In this document: in pieces, positions 21,850-27,865 of the stretch
How positions within the stretch are numbered: position 1 is the stretch's first letter
Layout of the letters: every line of letters begins with the position of its first letter
Virus record (IMG/VR): IMGVR_UViG_3300027721_000021
Coordinates: 1-52,144 of that record
Length of the DNA stretch: 52,144 nt
From: a virus
Taxonomy: Duplodnaviria > Caudoviricetes
Reading direction: 5' to 3' (one strand)
The notes under the pieces: model-generated
The model's database searches: none
Told to the model about the DNA's origin: nothing
The model's input: only the letters and a program-made list of their open reading frames with translations
Program-made: the position numbers and the translations under genes

Positions 21850-22017
21850 ATGGCACTTCAAAAGATAATGGAAGATCATGCTGCCGCATTAGAGATAGTG
21901 CGGCGCGTACAGCAAAACGCACGGTGGAGCGACTTACTCGACTCTTACGTGATTGACGCGGATACTGTCGCGATGGCAGATATCCTTGTGCGCGAAATCG
22001 AAGAGTCTGACAAATGA
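21850..22017 (+). CDS. Small hypothetical protein
   Basis: ATG just after the upstream stop; ATGA overlap with the next gene. Confidence 0.55.
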   Translation: MALQKIMEDHAAALEIVRRVQQNARWSDLLDSYVIDADTVAMADILVREIEESDK

Positions 22018-22448
22018 AAGAGCGTCACATTGGATTCACCGGCACCCGCGAGGGTATGTCGGACCATCAAAAGGAAACCTTCGCGGGTATCCTCAAGACG
22101 GCGAAACTTCTCTCCGAACTTGAAGATGAAGTGATCGTGTTTCACCATGGCGACTGTAAGGGTGCCGATGCCGACGCGCACGCAATCGCATTAGAGTTAG
22201 GATGCAGCGTCATCATCCATCCGCCAGTCAAGCGCATCATGCGTGCATACTGTCAGGGTGCGCGGGAAATCCTGCCACCCGAAGACTACTTAGAACGTGA
22301 TCGCTGCATCGTGGATTCTGTTAGCGGCATGATCGCTGCTCCTAAGTCAGATAAGGAAGAAGTCCGAAGCGGCACATGGTACACTGTGCGATATGCTCGT
22401 AAGACTAATAAGAGAGTTATCCTGCTAAACCGGGAATCTCAAGTCTAA
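22014..22448 (+). CDS. SLOG-superfamily (DprA/YspA-like) nucleotide-binding protein
   Basis: IGFTGTREG, HHGDCKGADA, YLERDRCIVD, SGTWYTVRYA. Confidence 0.75.
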   Translation: MKERHIGFTGTREGMSDHQKETFAGILKTAKLLSELEDEVIVFHHGDCKGADADAHAIALELGCSVIIHPPVKRIMRAYCQGAREILPPEDYLERDRCIVDSVSGMIAAPKSDKEEVRSGTWYTVRYARKTNKRVILLNRESQV

Positions 22449-22457
22449 TTCATAGGT

Positions 22458-22486
22458 TTGATTAGAATTAAGAATTCTGCTATAAT
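22458..22486 (+). promoter_or_regulatory. sigma70 promoter for the helicase operon
   Basis: TTGATT-17-TATAAT with extended TG. Confidence 0.75.
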
Positions 22487-22512: not shown

Positions 22513-22701
22513 GTGACTGAAATGACTGATATGGATACAGATGAAATTTTCGGTGGTATTAAGCGTATCACTCCTGTCTACACTGACAACATCATTCAAT
22601 TCCCGAAGATGCCGGTGAATGCGGCGACTGATATTGAGCATAGTGACATGGACAATATCATCCAGTTTCCGGATAAGCTATTTGTCCTAATAGGCTCTTA
22701 A
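22513..22701 (+). CDS. Small protein with duplicated DNIIQFP motif
   Basis: 62 aa, GAGG RBS, DNIIQFP twice. Confidence 0.55.
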   Translation: MTEMTDMDTDEIFGGIKRITPVYTDNIIQFPKMPVNAATDIEHSDMDNIIQFPDKLFVLIGS

Positions 22702-22705
22702 TATC

Positions 22706-24793
22706 ATGACAACCAAACATACAGGCGCACGCGAGCTAATCAAGCTAGGCGTATTCGACAACCTCTCAAGCTTCAAGCAATTCGAAGAGCGCAGCAAGAA
22801 ACTGCCGAATACGAAGCTTGTCGGTGACTATCTGGAAATTCTCGTTGAGGGGTTGCTGTACACGCATCCGTATTTCAACGCAAAGAATGTCTGGCAAGTC
22901 GGCAGCATCCCGTCGCGGATCGTCAAAAAGTACAACTTCCCGAAGCACAAGACGATGGGACTCGACGGCGCATACGAAGACCAATTTGGTCAGATCATTC
23001 CGTATCAGGTCAAGAACTACTCTTGCGATGTTCTCTCCGTAGAACACGTTGCGACCTTCCTCGGCGTTACTGAAAAGTCGCTGCGGGATCGCGTCATCTT
23101 TACGAACGTTCCCCGCTTCGCGACGGAAATCGACCGGCGTATCGGTCTGCGCGGCGTGAAAGCCGGATTCTTCCAGACTCTCACAAAGCATGACTTCATC
23201 AACTTCTACAATTGGCTTATGGACAAGCCGCTCCTGCCAGTTCAGCAGCGCACACCTAAGCCGCACCAGAAGGAATTCGTTGCTGCCGGTATTGATCACT
23301 TCGCGACCAATGATCGCGGACAGGCTGTAGCGGCGTGCGGATCGGGCAAGACCCTTTCTGGACTCTGGATCATCGAAGGTCTGTGGCGTGCGGGTAGGTT
23401 GCCTAACAACACCGCAATCGTCTTCCTGCCGTCCATTTCGCTTGTCTCGCAGACTCGTAAGGAATGGAACGCGCAGCTTCCGAATGATCTTCTGGAAATC
23501 TGCGTATGCTCCGACGAGACTGCCGGTAAGCAGGACGACACGATTCAGTACAACGTCAAGGACATGATGTTCCCGGCAACTACGGATGCCAAGACCATTC
23601 GCAAGTTCCTCAAGCACAAGACTCGCAAGCTTAAGGTCATCTTCTCGACGTATCACTCTGCGGCAGTAGTGGCGAATGCCATGAACTCGCGTGGCATCCC
23701 GGCAATCGACTTCGGCGCATTCGATGAAGCGCACCGCACGGCATCGACTGGCGCGATGTTCTCGTTCGCACTGTCCAACAGCAACATTCGCATCAACAAG
23801 CGCATGTTCATGACTGCGACTCCGAAGCACTACAAGATCAGCGCAGACAAGCTCAAGAAACTTGGTGACGATATCAAGATCGTTTCCATGGACAACGAAA
23901 AGCTATATGGCAAGGTCTTCTATCGGCTCACCTTCAAGGAAGCCGTTGCGCGTGGCATCATCGTTCCGCTCAAGGTCATCGTTTCGATGGTGACGCGGCA
24001 GGACGTTGCCGAGTGGGTTGAAGACAAGCAAGCGACCACCAACGTCAAGGGTGAGGATATCAACGTCAAGTGGGTTGCGGGTCAAATCTCGCACGCGCAG
24101 GCACGCAAGAAGTACGGTATCACTAAGTCGATTTCTTACCTGTCGCGTATCGCACAAGCCGAAGACTACGCGAGCGATTCGCCGCGTGGACTCAAGAACT
24201 ACGTGAAGGGTCTGGAAACCTTCGCGGCTTCCTCTAATCAGAATTCGACCGAACGCGAGAATGTCCTGAAAGACTTCCGCGAAGCACCGTATGCCGATAT
24301 CGCGAACTCGCGCTGCCTGACCGAAGGCGTAGACCTTCCCTCGGTGGACATGGTTCACTTCTTCCACCCGCGCAAGAGCCACATTGATATCGTGCAGGCA
24401 ATCGGTCGCCCAATGCGTATCGCTCCCGGCAAGGAATGTGGTTACGTTCTAGTGACGCTTTACATCGACCAACAGAAGGGTGAATCCTTTGAGGAAGCGG
24501 TTGAGCGCACTTCGCAGGACGGTCTGGTGGATATCATCAACGCAGTCCGCGAACACGATGAAGACCTCACGGCACTCATTCAGCAGCTTCGGCGCGAACG
24601 TGGCGAAGGTCGCCCATACAATCCACGCATTCTCAAGGACAAGATCGAAGTGATTGGTCCGCGAGTGCGTCTGGAAACGCTTGAGAAGTCAATCTCAACG
24701 ATCATCATTGACCGACTCAGCACGGCATTCGATGAAACGTATGGCGAGTTCATGGCATTCGTAAAGAAGCACGGCAGGCTCCCGCAGGGTTAA
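22706..24793 (+). CDS. Mrr-like nuclease + SF2 (DEAH) helicase ending in half an HA domain
   Basis: N-term GLDG...PYQVKNY (D...QxK); ACGSGKT, DEAHRT, MTATP, LTEGVDLP, DIVQAIGRPMR; ends FDETYGEFMAFVKKHGRLPQG. Confidence 0.85.
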   Translation: MTTKHTGARELIKLGVFDNLSSFKQFEERSKKLPNTKLVGDYLEILVEGLLYTHPYFNAKNVWQVGSIPSRIVKKYNFPKHKTMGLDGAYEDQFGQIIPYQVKNYSCDVLSVEHVATFLGVTEKSLRDRVIFTNVPRFATEIDRRIGLRGVKAGFFQTLTKHDFINFYNWLMDKPLLPVQQRTPKPHQKEFVAAGIDHFATNDRGQAVAACGSGKTLSGLWIIEGLWRAGRLPNNTAIVFLPSISLVSQTRKEWNAQLPNDLLEICVCSDETAGKQDDTIQYNVKDMMFPATTDAKTIRKFLKHKTRKLKVIFSTYHSAAVVANAMNSRGIPAIDFGAFDEAHRTASTGAMFSFALSNSNIRINKRMFMTATPKHYKISADKLKKLGDDIKIVSMDNEKLYGKVFYRLTFKEAVARGIIVPLKVIVSMVTRQDVAEWVEDKQATTNVKGEDINVKWVAGQISHAQARKKYGITKSISYLSRIAQAEDYASDSPRGLKNYVKGLETFAASSNQNSTERENVLKDFREAPYADIANSRCLTEGVDLPSVDMVHFFHPRKSHIDIVQAIGRPMRIAPGKECGYVLVTLYIDQQKGESFEEAVERTSQDGLVDIINAVREHDEDLTALIQQLRRERGEGRPYNPRILKDKIEVIGPRVRLETLEKSISTIIIDRLSTAFDETYGEFMAFVKKHGRLPQG

Positions 24794-24797
24794 TGAT

Positions 24798-25187
24798 ATG
24801 ATGACCGAAGCACAACTGTATCAGTGGATGAGGGCACAACGCACCTATAACAATCAGGGGCGACTTGAGCCGCGCCGCGTGAAACTTCTAGAGAAGATTC
24901 CCGGTTGGACTTGGACACCAGAAGATGATTCTTGGAATCAGAAGTATGAACTCTCTAAGAAGCACGGTACTCTATCCCGTACCTTCATTACAGCCGATGG
25001 AATCAAGTTAGGATGCTGGCAAGAAAACATGCGTAAGAATGGTGGTAACAACAAGCACATGACACCAGAGCGCAAGAAACTTCTAGAGAAGATTCCCGGT
25101 TGGTATTGGAAAATGACACCAGAAATGTTCTCCGAGAAGCAGAGAAAGTGTTCTTCTGGAAGAAAGACAAAGGCTCGCCGCAAATGA
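24798..25187 (+). CDS. Helicase-associated (HA) repeat protein 1
   Basis: LYQWMRAQR...LLEKIPGWTW, W..KY, GIKLGCWQENMR..LLEKIPGWYW. Confidence 0.8.
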   Translation: MMTEAQLYQWMRAQRTYNNQGRLEPRRVKLLEKIPGWTWTPEDDSWNQKYELSKKHGTLSRTFITADGIKLGCWQENMRKNGGNNKHMTPERKKLLEKIPGWYWKMTPEMFSEKQRKCSSGRKTKARRK

Positions 25188-25654
25188 TGACCGAAGCAGA
25201 ATTATTTCGTTGGATGGGTACGCAGCGCAGATCGTGTACGGACCCACGCCGTCGCGAATTGCTTGAGGCGATTCCCGGTTGGACATGGGAGAGTCCCAAC
25301 GACATACGTTGGAATGCCAACTTCAAAGTGTTCAAGAAACACGGAAAGATGGTCAACAACCAACATTTCAAAACGCCCGATGGTGTCTCCCTCGGTAAGT
25401 GGGTGAAGAACCAACAACAGTTCTGTAAGGAACCCGCGAAACGCGCATTGCTAGAATCTATTCCCGGTTGGGTCTGGCTCACACCACAAACCGATAGATG
25501 GGATCGTGCATTTGAGTATCTCAAGACGCATGGTGTAGTGACGCACGGTTTCAAAACGCCGGATGGATTTAGACTTGGACACTGGATTAACACTCAGAGA
25601 CAAGCTTGTAAAGATCCAGAGAGGCGCAAACTATTAGAGTCAATTCCCGGTTGG
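24881..25654 (+). repeat. Direct repeats within the HA genes
   Basis: 28-bp exact repeat GAAACTTCTAGAGAAGATTCCCGGTTGG at 24881 and 25076; 12-mer ATTCCCGGTTGG at 24897, 25092, 25271, 25460, 25643. Confidence 0.9.
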
Positions 25655-25909
25655 ACATGGGTGGTGGTAGAGAGAAAACCCAACTCAAAGAATATCGCAT
25701 TGTGGGAAAAGGGATACGATCACCTTAAGCAATATGGCAGTGGTGCGGTGACTCAGAAGTACCGTATGGAAGACGGCTTTGCTCTCGGGCATTGGGTTAT
25801 GATGCAGCGACGTATTTGTAAGGATTCAGAACGCCGCCGACGATTAGAGTTAATTCCTGACTGGACATGGAAATCCCCTCGCGGTCCAAAAGTTAAGAGC
25901 AGGATTTAG
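25184..25909 (+). CDS. Helicase-associated (HA) repeat protein 2
   Basis: ATGA-coupled start MMTEAELFRW; four LE.IP(G/D)W.W units with DG..LG.W..QR. Confidence 0.8.
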   Translation: MMTEAELFRWMGTQRRSCTDPRRRELLEAIPGWTWESPNDIRWNANFKVFKKHGKMVNNQHFKTPDGVSLGKWVKNQQQFCKEPAKRALLESIPGWVWLTPQTDRWDRAFEYLKTHGVVTHGFKTPDGFRLGHWINTQRQACKDPERRKLLESIPGWTWVVVERKPNSKNIALWEKGYDHLKQYGSGAVTQKYRMEDGFALGHWVMMQRRICKDSERRRRLELIPDWTWKSPRGPKVKSRI

Positions 25910-25911
25910 GC

Positions 25912-25940
25912 TAGACTTTCTCTAGCGACTCTGCTATAAT
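25912..25940 (+). promoter_or_regulatory. sigma70 promoter
   Basis: TAGACT-17-TATAAT with extended TG. Confidence 0.75.
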
Positions 25941-26017
25941 GATTGTGTAATGGGTAATACCGCAGCCCGTTCATATCTCTAATGTGAATTGCGGGATTTG
26001 TTTGAGGTTCTAGAACT

Positions 26018-26299
26018 ATGAAGCTATCGTTACGTGAGAAGGTGCTGCGCACTTTCGATAATCCGGTGTACAACACCTTTACGACCGCACAGGCTGCGGC
26101 TCGTTTCGGCGTGTCGCCTGCCACCGTCACTAAGACGGTCAACGCACTGCGTCTAGATGGTCATCCCATCTATCGCAACCGCAAGACCTATGAAGGTCGC
26201 ACGATCAACGTCTATCGTTACGGCACGCCGTCGAAGCGTTTCCTGCGCAACCTCCGTGCGGGTCGCACTCAGATCGCTATCGAAGCCCTCAACGGCTAA
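26018..26299 (+). CDS. Winged-HTH DNA-binding protein
   Basis: FTTAQAAARFGVSPATVTKTVNALRLDGHPIY.N, YRYGTPS. Confidence 0.8.
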   Translation: MKLSLREKVLRTFDNPVYNTFTTAQAAARFGVSPATVTKTVNALRLDGHPIYRNRKTYEGRTINVYRYGTPSKRFLRNLRAGRTQIAIEALNG

Positions 26300-26427: not shown

Positions 26428-27243
26428 ATGCAACTTGAAATTAGCGTAGACGAACTGAAAAAGGTCAAGCTATTCGTAGCGACACCGATGTACGGTGGAA
26501 TGTGCCACGGCATGTATGCCAAATCAGCATTAGACCTACAAGCCTGTTGTGCCGCCTATGGCATCGAAGTGAAGTTCTCATTCATCTTCAACGAATCTCT
26601 AATCACACGCGCACGAAACTATCTGGTAGACGAATTCCTTCGCTCCGGTTTCACGCATCTTCTATTCATCGACGCGGACATTCACTACGATCCTCGCGAT
26701 GTTGTTGCTCTTATCGCTCTTAAGAAAGACGTTATCGGTGGACCCTACCCGAAGAAGAGCATCAAGTGGGCTTCGGTTGTCGAAGCCGTCAAGAAGAATC
26801 CAAACATTGCGGCTGCGGAACTTGAAAAGGTCGCGGGTGACTTTGTGTTCAATCCAGTTCCCGGCACCGAGAAGTTCTCTATCGGTGATCCAATCTCCGT
26901 TCTGGAAATCGGCACCGGCTACATGCTAGTCAAGCGCGAAGTCTTCGACAAGCTCAAGGATGCATTCCCCGGCATCGAATATCGTCCGGACCATGTGGGT
27001 CAGGTCAACTTCGACGGCTCGCGTATGATTCACGCTTACTTCGACACCGTGATCGACACGCCAGAATCTTACACTGGCGGCGGCACGATGCGCTACCTGT
27101 CGGAAGACTACATGTTCTGCCAGTTGTGGCGGAAGATTCAGGGTGAAATCTGGCTATGCCCATGGATGAAGACTCACCACATTGGCACCTACGCATTCGT
27201 AGGCGACATGGCAGCAGTGGCAAACTACGTGGGAACTCTGTAA
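26428..27243 (+). CDS. GT-A fold glycosyltransferase-like protein
   Basis: FVATPMYGG, ESLITRARN, THLLFIDADI (DxD), GTGYMLVKR.VF, YLSEDYMFC. Confidence 0.8.
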   Translation: MQLEISVDELKKVKLFVATPMYGGMCHGMYAKSALDLQACCAAYGIEVKFSFIFNESLITRARNYLVDEFLRSGFTHLLFIDADIHYDPRDVVALIALKKDVIGGPYPKKSIKWASVVEAVKKNPNIAAAELEKVAGDFVFNPVPGTEKFSIGDPISVLEIGTGYMLVKREVFDKLKDAFPGIEYRPDHVGQVNFDGSRMIHAYFDTVIDTPESYTGGGTMRYLSEDYMFCQLWRKIQGEIWLCPWMKTHHIGTYAFVGDMAAVANYVGTL

Positions 27244-27244
27244 T

Positions 27245-27865
27245 ATGATCATTGGTTTCGTTGGGTTTATCAATAGTGGTAAGGGAACTGTCTCTGACAT
27301 TCTCACCCACAAGTACGGGTTCAACAAGGAAAGTTTTGCGAACGCAGTGAAGGACGCGGTTTCTCCTATCTTCGGTTGGGATAGGAAAATGTTGGAAGGT
27401 GATACGAAGGAGTCTCGGGAATGGCGTGAGACTCCTGATCCATGGTGGTCTGAGAAGTTGGGCAAGCCTTTCTCTCCTAGGCTTGCTCTTCAACTTATGG
27501 GAACAGAGAGTGGGCGCAATGTGTTCCACACAGACGTATGGGTTCTGTCTTTTCTAAGACGCACTGATCCGGCTAAGAACTACGTCCTCGCTGACGTTCG
27601 CTTCCCCAACGAAATCGACCTGATCCGTAACAACGGTGGCAAGGTCATCCGTGTCAAGCGCGGTCCCGAACCCGAATGGTACGACACTGCGGAAGCCTAC
27701 AACGTGTCTACGAATTGGGACGGCTCCATGCAGTACATGAAGCGGTTCCCTAATGTCCATTACTCCGAGTGGGCGTGGATCGGAAAGTCTTTCGATGATG
27801 AAATCACTAATTCGACTACGCTAGAAGACCTTGAGAAAAAGGTTGTGAAACTGATTCAGCCGTGA
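27245..27865 (+). CDS. Deoxynucleoside monophosphate kinase (gp1-like)
   Basis: GFINSGKGT, SFANAVKD, PRLALQLMGTE, DVRFPNE, H.SE. Confidence 0.9.
   Translation: MIIGFVGFINSGKGTVSDILTHKYGFNKESFANAVKDAVSPIFGWDRKMLEGDTKESREWRETPDPWWSEKLGKPFSPRLALQLMGTESGRNVFHTDVWVLSFLRRTDPAKNYVLADVRFPNEIDLIRNNGGKVIRVKRGPEPEWYDTAEAYNVSTNWDGSMQYMKRFPNVHYSEWAWIGKSFDDEITNSTTLEDLEKKVVKLIQP

Follow-up and report, generated by a model that had tools for sequence, protein, structure and literature searches.

The 52,144-nucleotide (nt) stretch of viral DNA considered here, IMG/VR record IMGVR_UViG_3300027721_000021 (Duplodnaviria; Caudoviricetes) and called the window throughout, carries a locus in which a single small domain is divided between genes. 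The first gene encodes a protein that joins an Mrr-like nuclease to a superfamily 2 (SF2) helicase-like motor and that ends after the first helix (helix A) of a three-helix HA unit. Two downstream open reading frames (ORFs), ORF2 and ORF3, each begin with the other two helices (B and C) of such a unit and continue into further HA units. On balance, we consider it probable that the locus as a whole is a naturally split, three-gene form of a mostly single-gene Mrr-nuclease/SF2/HA family, in which the half unit on the motor protein would serve as the docking site for two alternating partners. The family itself is known, if functionally uncharacterised; what is unusual is the conserved fission inside a small domain, together with partners that have been duplicated and resized.

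The motor protein comprises 695 amino acids (aa), is encoded by ORF 22706-24793 with a TAA stop at 24791-24793, and has a C-terminus that reads ...FDETYGEFMAFVKKHGRLPQG. An HA-unit profile made from 184 units of relatives describes helix A (W..gF..L..f....G), a loop, helix B (LG.W...QR) and helix C (L...R...L...GF.W). This profile gave no match on the window's own motor tail. Among the closest relatives of the motor protein in a collection of 5.8 billion proteins (P0002-P0010), it matched the aligned tails of P0004 (positions 2-28, E-value 0.0025) and P0005 (positions 3-23, E-value 0.016), and in P0006-P0010 the stretch aligned to the window tail continues into a complete HA unit. Because of these matches and this extension, we read the window tail as helix A of an HA unit, as did a first-pass annotation of this DNA, which held that the protein stops midway through an HA repeat. 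Six residues of the tail (E677, Y679, G680, K688, G690 and P693) are invariant in 10 of 10 motor sequences. When the motor gene is compared with that of a syntenic metagenome locus, L006 (86% identity), synonymous divergence (dS) is 0.73 and non-synonymous divergence (dN) is 0.087, and the 20 codons of helix A differ by five synonymous changes and one non-synonymous change. Since the split persists at this dS with such a pattern of change in helix A, the split is old and the orphan helix is kept under purifying selection.

All nine close relatives (62-86% identity) have a motor protein that ends in a helix A. P0002-P0005 (86, 85, 80 and 70% identity; 698-700 aa) stop at the window's position, and P0006-P0010 (62-79%) stop one unit later, after a full HA unit and the next helix A. 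Both sub-clades are thus cut in an A-B loop, though not in that of the same HA unit. The helix-A ending was flagged by the profile for P0004-P0008 and assigned by alignment and reading of the tail for P0001-P0003, P0009 and P0010. The proposal that the split is stable is thus upheld among these relatives.

Most of the more distant relatives are fused, and sporadic breaks in the same loop, their origin uncertain, are present in two loci from metagenome-assembled genomes (MAGs), L107 and L176. Both facts could be taken to mean that the break in the window is an assembly error or a recent pseudogenising change, and that the true gene is one long fused ORF, but we find this scarcely credible. Contigs (not raw reads) of four public runs were aligned to 24300-25950, and none of the four shows an insertion or deletion there, although two of them, X3 and X7, do not cover position 24790. 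Minority variants could escape notice in such contigs. A contig of run X2, taken from a different sample in a different study, matches 24300-24856 without a single difference or gap, and a contig of the probable source run, X1, spans the junction equally unchanged, so the indel at 24790 that had been suggested as a check is absent from the contigs that cover the site. Four relatives at 70-86% identity share the same stop position, the split has endured through considerable synonymous divergence, and the starts of the partner genes are conserved. Judged from these contigs and relatives, the genes are truly arranged in this way, and the break results neither from misassembly nor from recent pseudogenisation.

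The two partner genes begin alike. Both open with MMTEA(Q/E)L...W...QR, and the same 15 nt, ATGATGACCGAAGCA, stand at 24798 and 25184 without a single difference, exactly as first noticed. None of 100 shuffles gave three or more matches at two or fewer mismatches, and chance does not account for this repeat. The likeness between the two starts extends over 46 nt at 76% identity. Pfam HA (PF03457; gathering cut-off 28.4 bits) matches ORF2 at 44.3 bits and ORF3 at 87.9 bits, and all five HA matches in the window lie inside 24804-25852. According to the HA-unit profile, the composition is BC+ABC in ORF2 and BC+3xABC in ORF3, which agrees with the earlier statement that the partners carry different numbers of units. 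PADLOC, NCBIfam and PHROGs yielded no meaningful family for either ORF, and a sequence search of the PDB with ORF3 returned nothing at an E-value of 1 or lower.

The conserved start is not peculiar to the window. A motif, MxxT[DE]xQLxxWxxxQR, is common to 13 further partner-family proteins, and the partners in L006 and in a second metagenome locus, L007, also begin with helices B-C, so the missing half of the domain does exist as real genes with starts of their own, as had been supposed. Seven residues (L7, W10, L31, E32, P35, W37 and W39) are invariant in 19 aligned partner sequences, and in the same alignment the N-terminal half of the partners retains the core residues of internal HA units. 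Less survives of the idea that a similar AGGCTC(G)CCGCA element precedes each partner. Both copies are present, AGGCTCCCGCA at 24776-24786 and AGGCTCGCCGCA at 25171-25182, but they lie 11 nt and 1 nt before their respective ATG codons, the second codes for the conserved KARRK tail of ORF2, and the partner genes of L006 and L007 start without any such motif ahead of them.

Given that the frame of ORF3 is open upstream to 25100 (ORF 25100-25909) and that the in-frame peptide found there, ...FFWKKDKGSPQ, resembles helix A and the motor's ...FVKKHGRLPQ, one might ask whether ORF2 and ORF3 are a single array gene broken by a frameshift near 25100-25180. We regard this as extremely improbable. The tail of ORF2 (W-KMT...KTKARRK) is like those of the complete partners P0124, P0125 and P0135, which are encoded on contigs equal in length to those of the helicases P0004 and P0005, and because of this conservation the stretch upstream of ORF3 was rejected as the helix-A remnant of a broken single gene. 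The tail of ORF3 (RGPKVKSRI) resembles those of another group (P0121, P0123, P0127 and P0129), of which P0121 is 98% identical to ORF3 and is called at the same length of 241 aa. P0216 (192 aa) and P0217 (182 aa), to which ORF2 is closest, also exist as proteins of their own and have three units versus the two of ORF2. Furthermore, in a relative from run X7, the start of ORF3 is directly preceded by another first partner that ends in the ORF2-type tail. By these comparisons of starts and tails, ORF2 and ORF3 are two complete paralogous genes that belong to different paralogue groups, each with a conserved start and a conserved basic tail. Two 40-nt helix-C segments inside ORF2 are 90% identical, a similarity that would favour the gain and loss of units.

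Partner genes that start with helices B-C beside the helicase gene were found in only two of 80 metagenome loci, L006 and L007, and these two differ from the window and from each other. In L007, two partners lie in tandem, the second overlapping the first, and begin similarly (MAKYRKVEDFELNQW and MAKYRTIEEFNLPEW). In L006, one array gene precedes the motor gene, with a stop/start overlap (TAATG), and another follows it. The position of array genes relative to the motor gene is thus variable. The upstream gene of L006 (L006:357-875) starts with B-C, encodes about 168 aa and has no basic tail. Closer to the window, a contig of run X7 joins it at 25164, where the tail of a four-unit partner similar to P0125 lies upstream in place of ORF2; its ORF3 has 20 differences in 745 nt. 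Because this contig carries a P0125-like partner where the window has ORF2, close relatives differ in the first partner and in its number of units, and array sizes of 2, 3, 4 or 5 units occur among them. In one X7 contig, 24711 is joined directly to 25271, so that 559 nt are skipped; the shorter side of this joint is just 20 letters long, and the contig may represent either a relative with a different array or a misjoin driven by the repeats.

The junctions between the motor gene and the first downstream partner also differ. In the window, the sequence is GGT TAA TGAT ATG, with a gap of 4 nt and the partner in the +1 frame. In L006, it is GAC TGA T ATG, with a gap of 1 nt and the partner again in the +1 frame. 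In L007, it is GTT TGA ATC GTG, with a gap of 3 nt, the partner in the helicase frame and GAGG located 8 nt before the GTG. The first-pass annotation had noted that a +1 shift at GGT-TAA would read on without a stop, and indeed skipping T24791 gives G-N-D-M-M-T-E-A-Q-L. A programmed +1 frameshift at this site could then produce a fused motor-ORF2 protein, with the separate ORFs as a by-product. The open frame across the window junction (...LPQG-NDMMTEAQL) is compatible with such a shift, as is the L006 partner, whose +1 frame is open for 27 nt upstream of its ATG. Even so, this explanation is very unlikely. As we read the junctions, neither GGT in the window nor GAC in L006 could re-pair in the +1 frame from the P site, and the three junctions, which differ in sequence, spacing and frame, share no slippery sequence. 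The L007 partner, in the helicase frame behind a TGA and one codon, has its own GAGG and GTG. All partners keep a start codon and a conserved N-terminus, and ORF3 is out of reach of the same shift. The suggestion of a shifty-stop fusion accordingly fails in the absence of any shared slippery site or constant frame relation, and separate translation of the partners remains the reading that we favour.

Beyond the close relatives, homologues of the whole core are readily found (E-values of 1e-140 to 1e-176, 38-45% identity, 98-100% of the query), and the same core recurs at 29-45% identity over all 695 residues in single-chain proteins of cells and giant viruses. When the HA-unit profile was applied to the 110 more distant proteins (38-45% identity), 104 were seen to end after helix C, three in helix A and three in helix B. 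Among 116 genome and viral loci, 53 are fused and end after helix C, two end in helix B, 19 lack HA units (some of them at full Type ISP size, ~1,600-1,700 aa), 29 have only a partial helicase match and 13 run off the contig; most of the 63 loci outside the fused class are uninformative on the question of fused versus split. Fusion is thus the usual state of HA-bearing homologues, and the split marks the phage clade. The comparison with homologous loci that had been recommended thus finds close phage relatives split, distant homologues mostly fused and unit numbers variable among the partners. As judged by these searches, the Mrr-nuclease/SF2/HA-array family is widespread in bacteria, archaea and giant viruses. 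At the DNA level, the locus had no match among 50,697 phage records, and a protein search of the same records found distant helicases only (at most 30% identity). A scan of viral contigs with the single protein confirmed nothing, and an alignment-based scan found only relatives at 33% identity or less.

Two loci in this wider set have breaks that deserve separate mention. In L176 (4986-8711), a giant-virus MAG record at 24% identity, the helicase ORF ends in ...KYGKLPSG followed by an in-frame TGA at the loop position where the window's motor gene is cut, and the frame then goes on into helices B-C of that HA unit, with no start codon close by. An error, a pseudogene or read-through may lie behind this break. 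In L107 (883-3737), an Anaerolineae MAG, the frame changes in the A-B loop of the third HA unit and the array continues in an overlapping ORF, which may reflect an assembly error or another natural split.

The remainder of the motor protein is homologous, by sequence, to the Mrr-nuclease and SF2-motor half of the Type ISP restriction enzymes LlaBIII and LlaGI. Pfam identifies an SF2 motor (ResIII at 54.9 bits, Helicase_C at 41.2 and DEAD at 34.5). LlaBIII (4xqk) matches at an E-value of 3e-60 over residues 44-444 and 532-630 (44-444 aligning with 38-444 of 4xqk), and LlaGI (5ffj) at 6e-56. The PADLOC models that match are REase_MTase_IIG (2.6e-79) and REase_MTase_I (5.8e-64), which represent Type IIG and Type I restriction-methylase fusions. 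In abstracts on Type ISP enzymes, these proteins are described as translocating on DNA and cutting after the collision of two enzymes, the relevant half being the Mrr-family nuclease with the SF2 motor. Of the five LlaGI nuclease motif residues (E38; D74 and D78; Q92-x-K94), four are kept in the motor protein. E44 (the motif I Glu), D87 (the catalytic Asp) and Q101-x-K103 are invariant in 117-118 of 118 family sequences. In contrast, the column equivalent to LlaGI D74 holds Asp in 95 of 118 family members and K, G or S in the phage clade (K82/T83 in the window). In LlaGI, the D74A change abolished cleavage and left the enzyme nuclease-dead (PMC2790908).

Whether the two halves of the split unit meet in trans was addressed by structure prediction. 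Motor residues 596-695 and ORF2 were both supplied as alignments, and the resulting complex scored 0.51 as against 0.00 for the best of three controls, a result graded as weak support. The runs agree in at least 86% of contacts, with the partner at a predicted local distance difference test (pLDDT) value of at least 81. For calibration, 58 of 80 solved complexes pass the mark used, as against 2 of 110 mismatched pairs; just seven of the 80 solved complexes pass it with a score of 0.60 or less, and so do both of the passing mismatches. Docking in trans by way of the split HA unit, as first proposed, is plausible, and the prediction lends it weak support. Modelled alone with AlphaFold2 (AF2), ORF2 has a pLDDT of 85.9 overall, and its full unit forms helices at residues 41-56, 71-80 and 90-97. 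The top hit for this unit among 48,161 chains is the HA domain 2kta (root-mean-square deviation 3.3, 70 of 74 residues aligned), with a Z-score of 4.7 that is common for helical models. A Foldseek search of the ORF2 model against the PDB gave nothing at an E-value of 0.001 or lower.

Several of our own observations weigh against docking or against the activity that we associate with it. A complex score of 0.51 falls in a band that is more often wrong than right unless the interaction was likely beforehand, and no contacts were returned. Since a solved intact HA domain exists (2kta), the score may partly reflect likeness to that intact domain. The B-C half of ORF2 is modelled alone at a pLDDT of 90-95 without helix A, and so the half may not need a partner, although we consider that this stand-alone model would fit docking and non-docking views alike. 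Because the Asp equivalent to LlaGI D74 is missing, DNA cleavage by the phage clade is in doubt, and its nuclease competence must be regarded as uncertain. Finally, ten neighbour genes in five cellular loci revealed no consistent context, with one Csm6, one transposase, one DUF6988 and no methylase among them.

In keeping with some of these points, the split might be real while the half units do not dock. Helix A would then be a leftover or a part of the motor's C-terminal fold, and ORF2 and ORF3 would either contact the motor by another surface or act alone, whether as regulators, decoys or accessory proteins that bind DNA. The confident N-terminal half of ORF2 by itself, the weak complex prediction and the unfixed gene order implied by the upstream array gene of L006 are all in its favour. 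However, purifying selection on helix A, its six invariant residues, the core residues retained in the first half of the partners, the recurrence of an A-B loop cut in both sub-clades, each time in another unit, and the null scores of the complex-prediction controls speak against it. We judge this alternative to be unlikely, though it is by far the most serious of those considered here.

In this T4-like phage clade, then, the gene was cut in the loop between helices A and B of an HA unit, leaving helix A on the motor, and what remained of the array turned into separate genes, each with a start codon. From this arrangement we envision the following. All genes would be carried on one transcript and coupled in translation through the 4-nt gap and the ATGA overlap. 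Helix A of the motor may then pack on the N-terminal helices B-C of a partner, rebuilding an HA unit in trans and tethering the array to the motor at the place that the methylase and recognition half takes in Type ISP enzymes. Since ORF2 and ORF3 share this half unit, they would compete for, or alternate on, one helix A to give two forms of the enzyme, in which the array would serve to hold the translocating nuclease on DNA or to aim it there.

Switchable specificity and a restriction-like or anti-competitor role, as suggested in the first-pass annotation, may apply to this system. Possible roles for the phage are degradation of host or rival DNA, or DNA processing, as suggested by the restriction-enzyme relatives, the lack of a methylase and the location in a replication/recombination module. 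A bolder proposal is that HA arrays are exchangeable aiming modules and the split HA unit a universal plug, which would allow arrays to be swapped, duplicated or resized without touching the motor gene and would re-aim a Type ISP-like enzyme devoid of methyltransferase at host or rival-phage DNA. We hold this to be rather improbable, but, if true, it would constitute a natural fragment-complementation docking system and provide a first handle on what HA repeats recognise. In any case, the phage clade offers a version of the family that evolution has taken apart, with motor and arrays separate and array lengths that differ among close relatives. The targets of HA arrays, and the use of a 65-residue three-helix domain split in a loop as a docking joint, can both be tested directly through this clade. 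Moreover, if the motor protein cuts DNA, it would be a phage-borne, methylase-less relative of a host restriction enzyme, and one would have to ask how the DNA of the phage itself escapes.

The genomic setting is that of a T4-like myovirus. The 52-kb record, estimated to represent ~29% of a genome, includes structural genes (tail sheath, portal, scaffold and major head protein), replication and recombination genes (UvsW-like helicase, gp46/47-like SbcCD, gp45 clamp, clamp loader, gp43 polymerase, UvsX and gp41-like helicase), CobS and dNMP kinase. The split motor locus lies between cobS and the clamp gene, inside the T4-like replication module, and the system can be called phage-encoded, as it was at first. 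The expectation that no methyltransferase adjoins the nuclease-helicase is likewise borne out: none of the neighbouring genes is a methylase, and four DNA methyltransferase families (PF02384, PF01555, PF00145 and PF02086) are unmatched in the record, which covers only the fraction of the genome given above.

Four ORFs, of which the first is small and acidic, are packed end to end on the + strand (Table 1). Promoter-like matches precede and follow this group, and between the two there is neither a + strand terminator-like site nor another promoter-like match; seven promoter-consensus matches were found in the region versus 3.8 expected. The downstream match probably marks the end of the transcription unit. 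Membership of the small ORF in the system is uncertain, and it has no Pfam or PHROG family and no counterpart at the equivalent position in L006; that it is a regulator or inhibitor of the enzyme is conceivable.

Table 1. Features of the split motor locus, with positions in the window
Feature	Position	Strand	Description
Sigma-70-like promoter match	22458..22486	+	TTGATT-17-TATAAT, 10/12, TG before -10; upstream of four packed ORFs; consensus match only
Small acidic ORF	22513..22701	+	62 aa, DNIIQFP twice; ends 5 nt before motor start
Mrr-like PD-(D/E)xK nuclease domain	22706..23245	+	Residues 1-180; E44, D87 and Q101-x-K103 present; LlaGI D74 equivalent absent
SF2 helicase-like ATPase motor (ResIII, DEAD, Helicase_C) and C-terminal linker	23246..24718	+	Assigned by Pfam and homology to LlaBIII/LlaGI
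Helix A of HA unit and TAA stop	24719..24793	+	Residues 672-695; first half of split domain
ORF2, partner 1	24798..25187	+	129 aa; helices B-C, one full HA unit, basic tail ...KTKARRK; starts 4 nt after motor stop
ORF3, partner 2	25184..25909	+	241 aa; helices B-C, three full HA units, tail ...RGPKVKSRI; start overlaps ORF2 stop (ATGA)
Promoter-like match	25912..25940	+	Directly after ORF3, before helix-turn-helix (HTH) protein gene 26018-26299; consensus match only

Two other genes near the locus are of interest. Between cobS and the locus, ORF 22014-22448 (144 aa) gives weak DprA/SLOG-type matches (PF02481, E-value 0.0014; PHROG 289) and is absent from this place in L006. A glycosyltransferase-like gene (26428-27865; PHROG 1574, with a weak Anp1 match) lies two genes beyond the downstream end of the locus, immediately ahead of the gene for dNMP kinase, and is syntenic in L006. 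This gene could bear on DNA modification and on the manner in which the phage spares its own DNA.

Published information on comparable systems is sparse. In the literature on HA domains and on Type ISP enzymes or their phage-encoded relatives, we found no functional study of the family and no split HA unit, only a structural-genomics reference to one HA domain and a passing mention of a fusion between HA and a PLD-type nuclease. The latter source describes HA domains as ‘previously shown to bind DNA’ and names them among several C-terminal domains fused to PLD-type defence nucleases (PMC12191111). The solved HA domain (PF03457), 2kta, derives from the Bacteroides vulgatus protein A6KY75, and its sequence matches the array of a fused relative weakly (E-value 0.011). 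It holds its three helices in one chain, whereas the phage has helix A and helices B-C on different proteins.

Among the closest known relatives are the single-chain Mrr/SF2/HA proteins from Nitrospira, Rhodospirillaceae, Chlamydiae, Bacteroidota, archaeal and giant-virus MAG (GVMAG) records, which share with the phage system both the core and the placement of HA units after the motor. Nearly all HA-bearing members have 1-12 units fused to the motor and end after helix C, whereas the phage array is detached and cut inside a unit. The Type ISP enzymes LlaBIII and LlaGI have in common with the phage protein the Mrr-family nuclease and the SF2 helicase-like ATPase, with the motif I Glu, the catalytic Asp and the Q-x-K motif kept. 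They also carry an N6-adenine methyltransferase and a target-recognition domain in the same chain, whereas the motor protein ends at residue 695 without a methylase domain and HA repeats on separate polypeptides replace the methylase and recognition half. The phage system further departs from them by lacking the LlaGI D74 equivalent and by being encoded by a phage rather than a host plasmid. A looser analogy exists with Type I restriction enzymes, in which the motor-nuclease HsdR acts with a separate specificity subunit, HsdS, whose exchange changes the target. As in those enzymes, the nuclease-translocase of the phage would depend on a separately encoded DNA-recognition subunit. Unlike them, it has no methylase and no homology to HsdM or HsdS, and the proposed contact between motor and recognition subunit would be made by a split three-helix domain.

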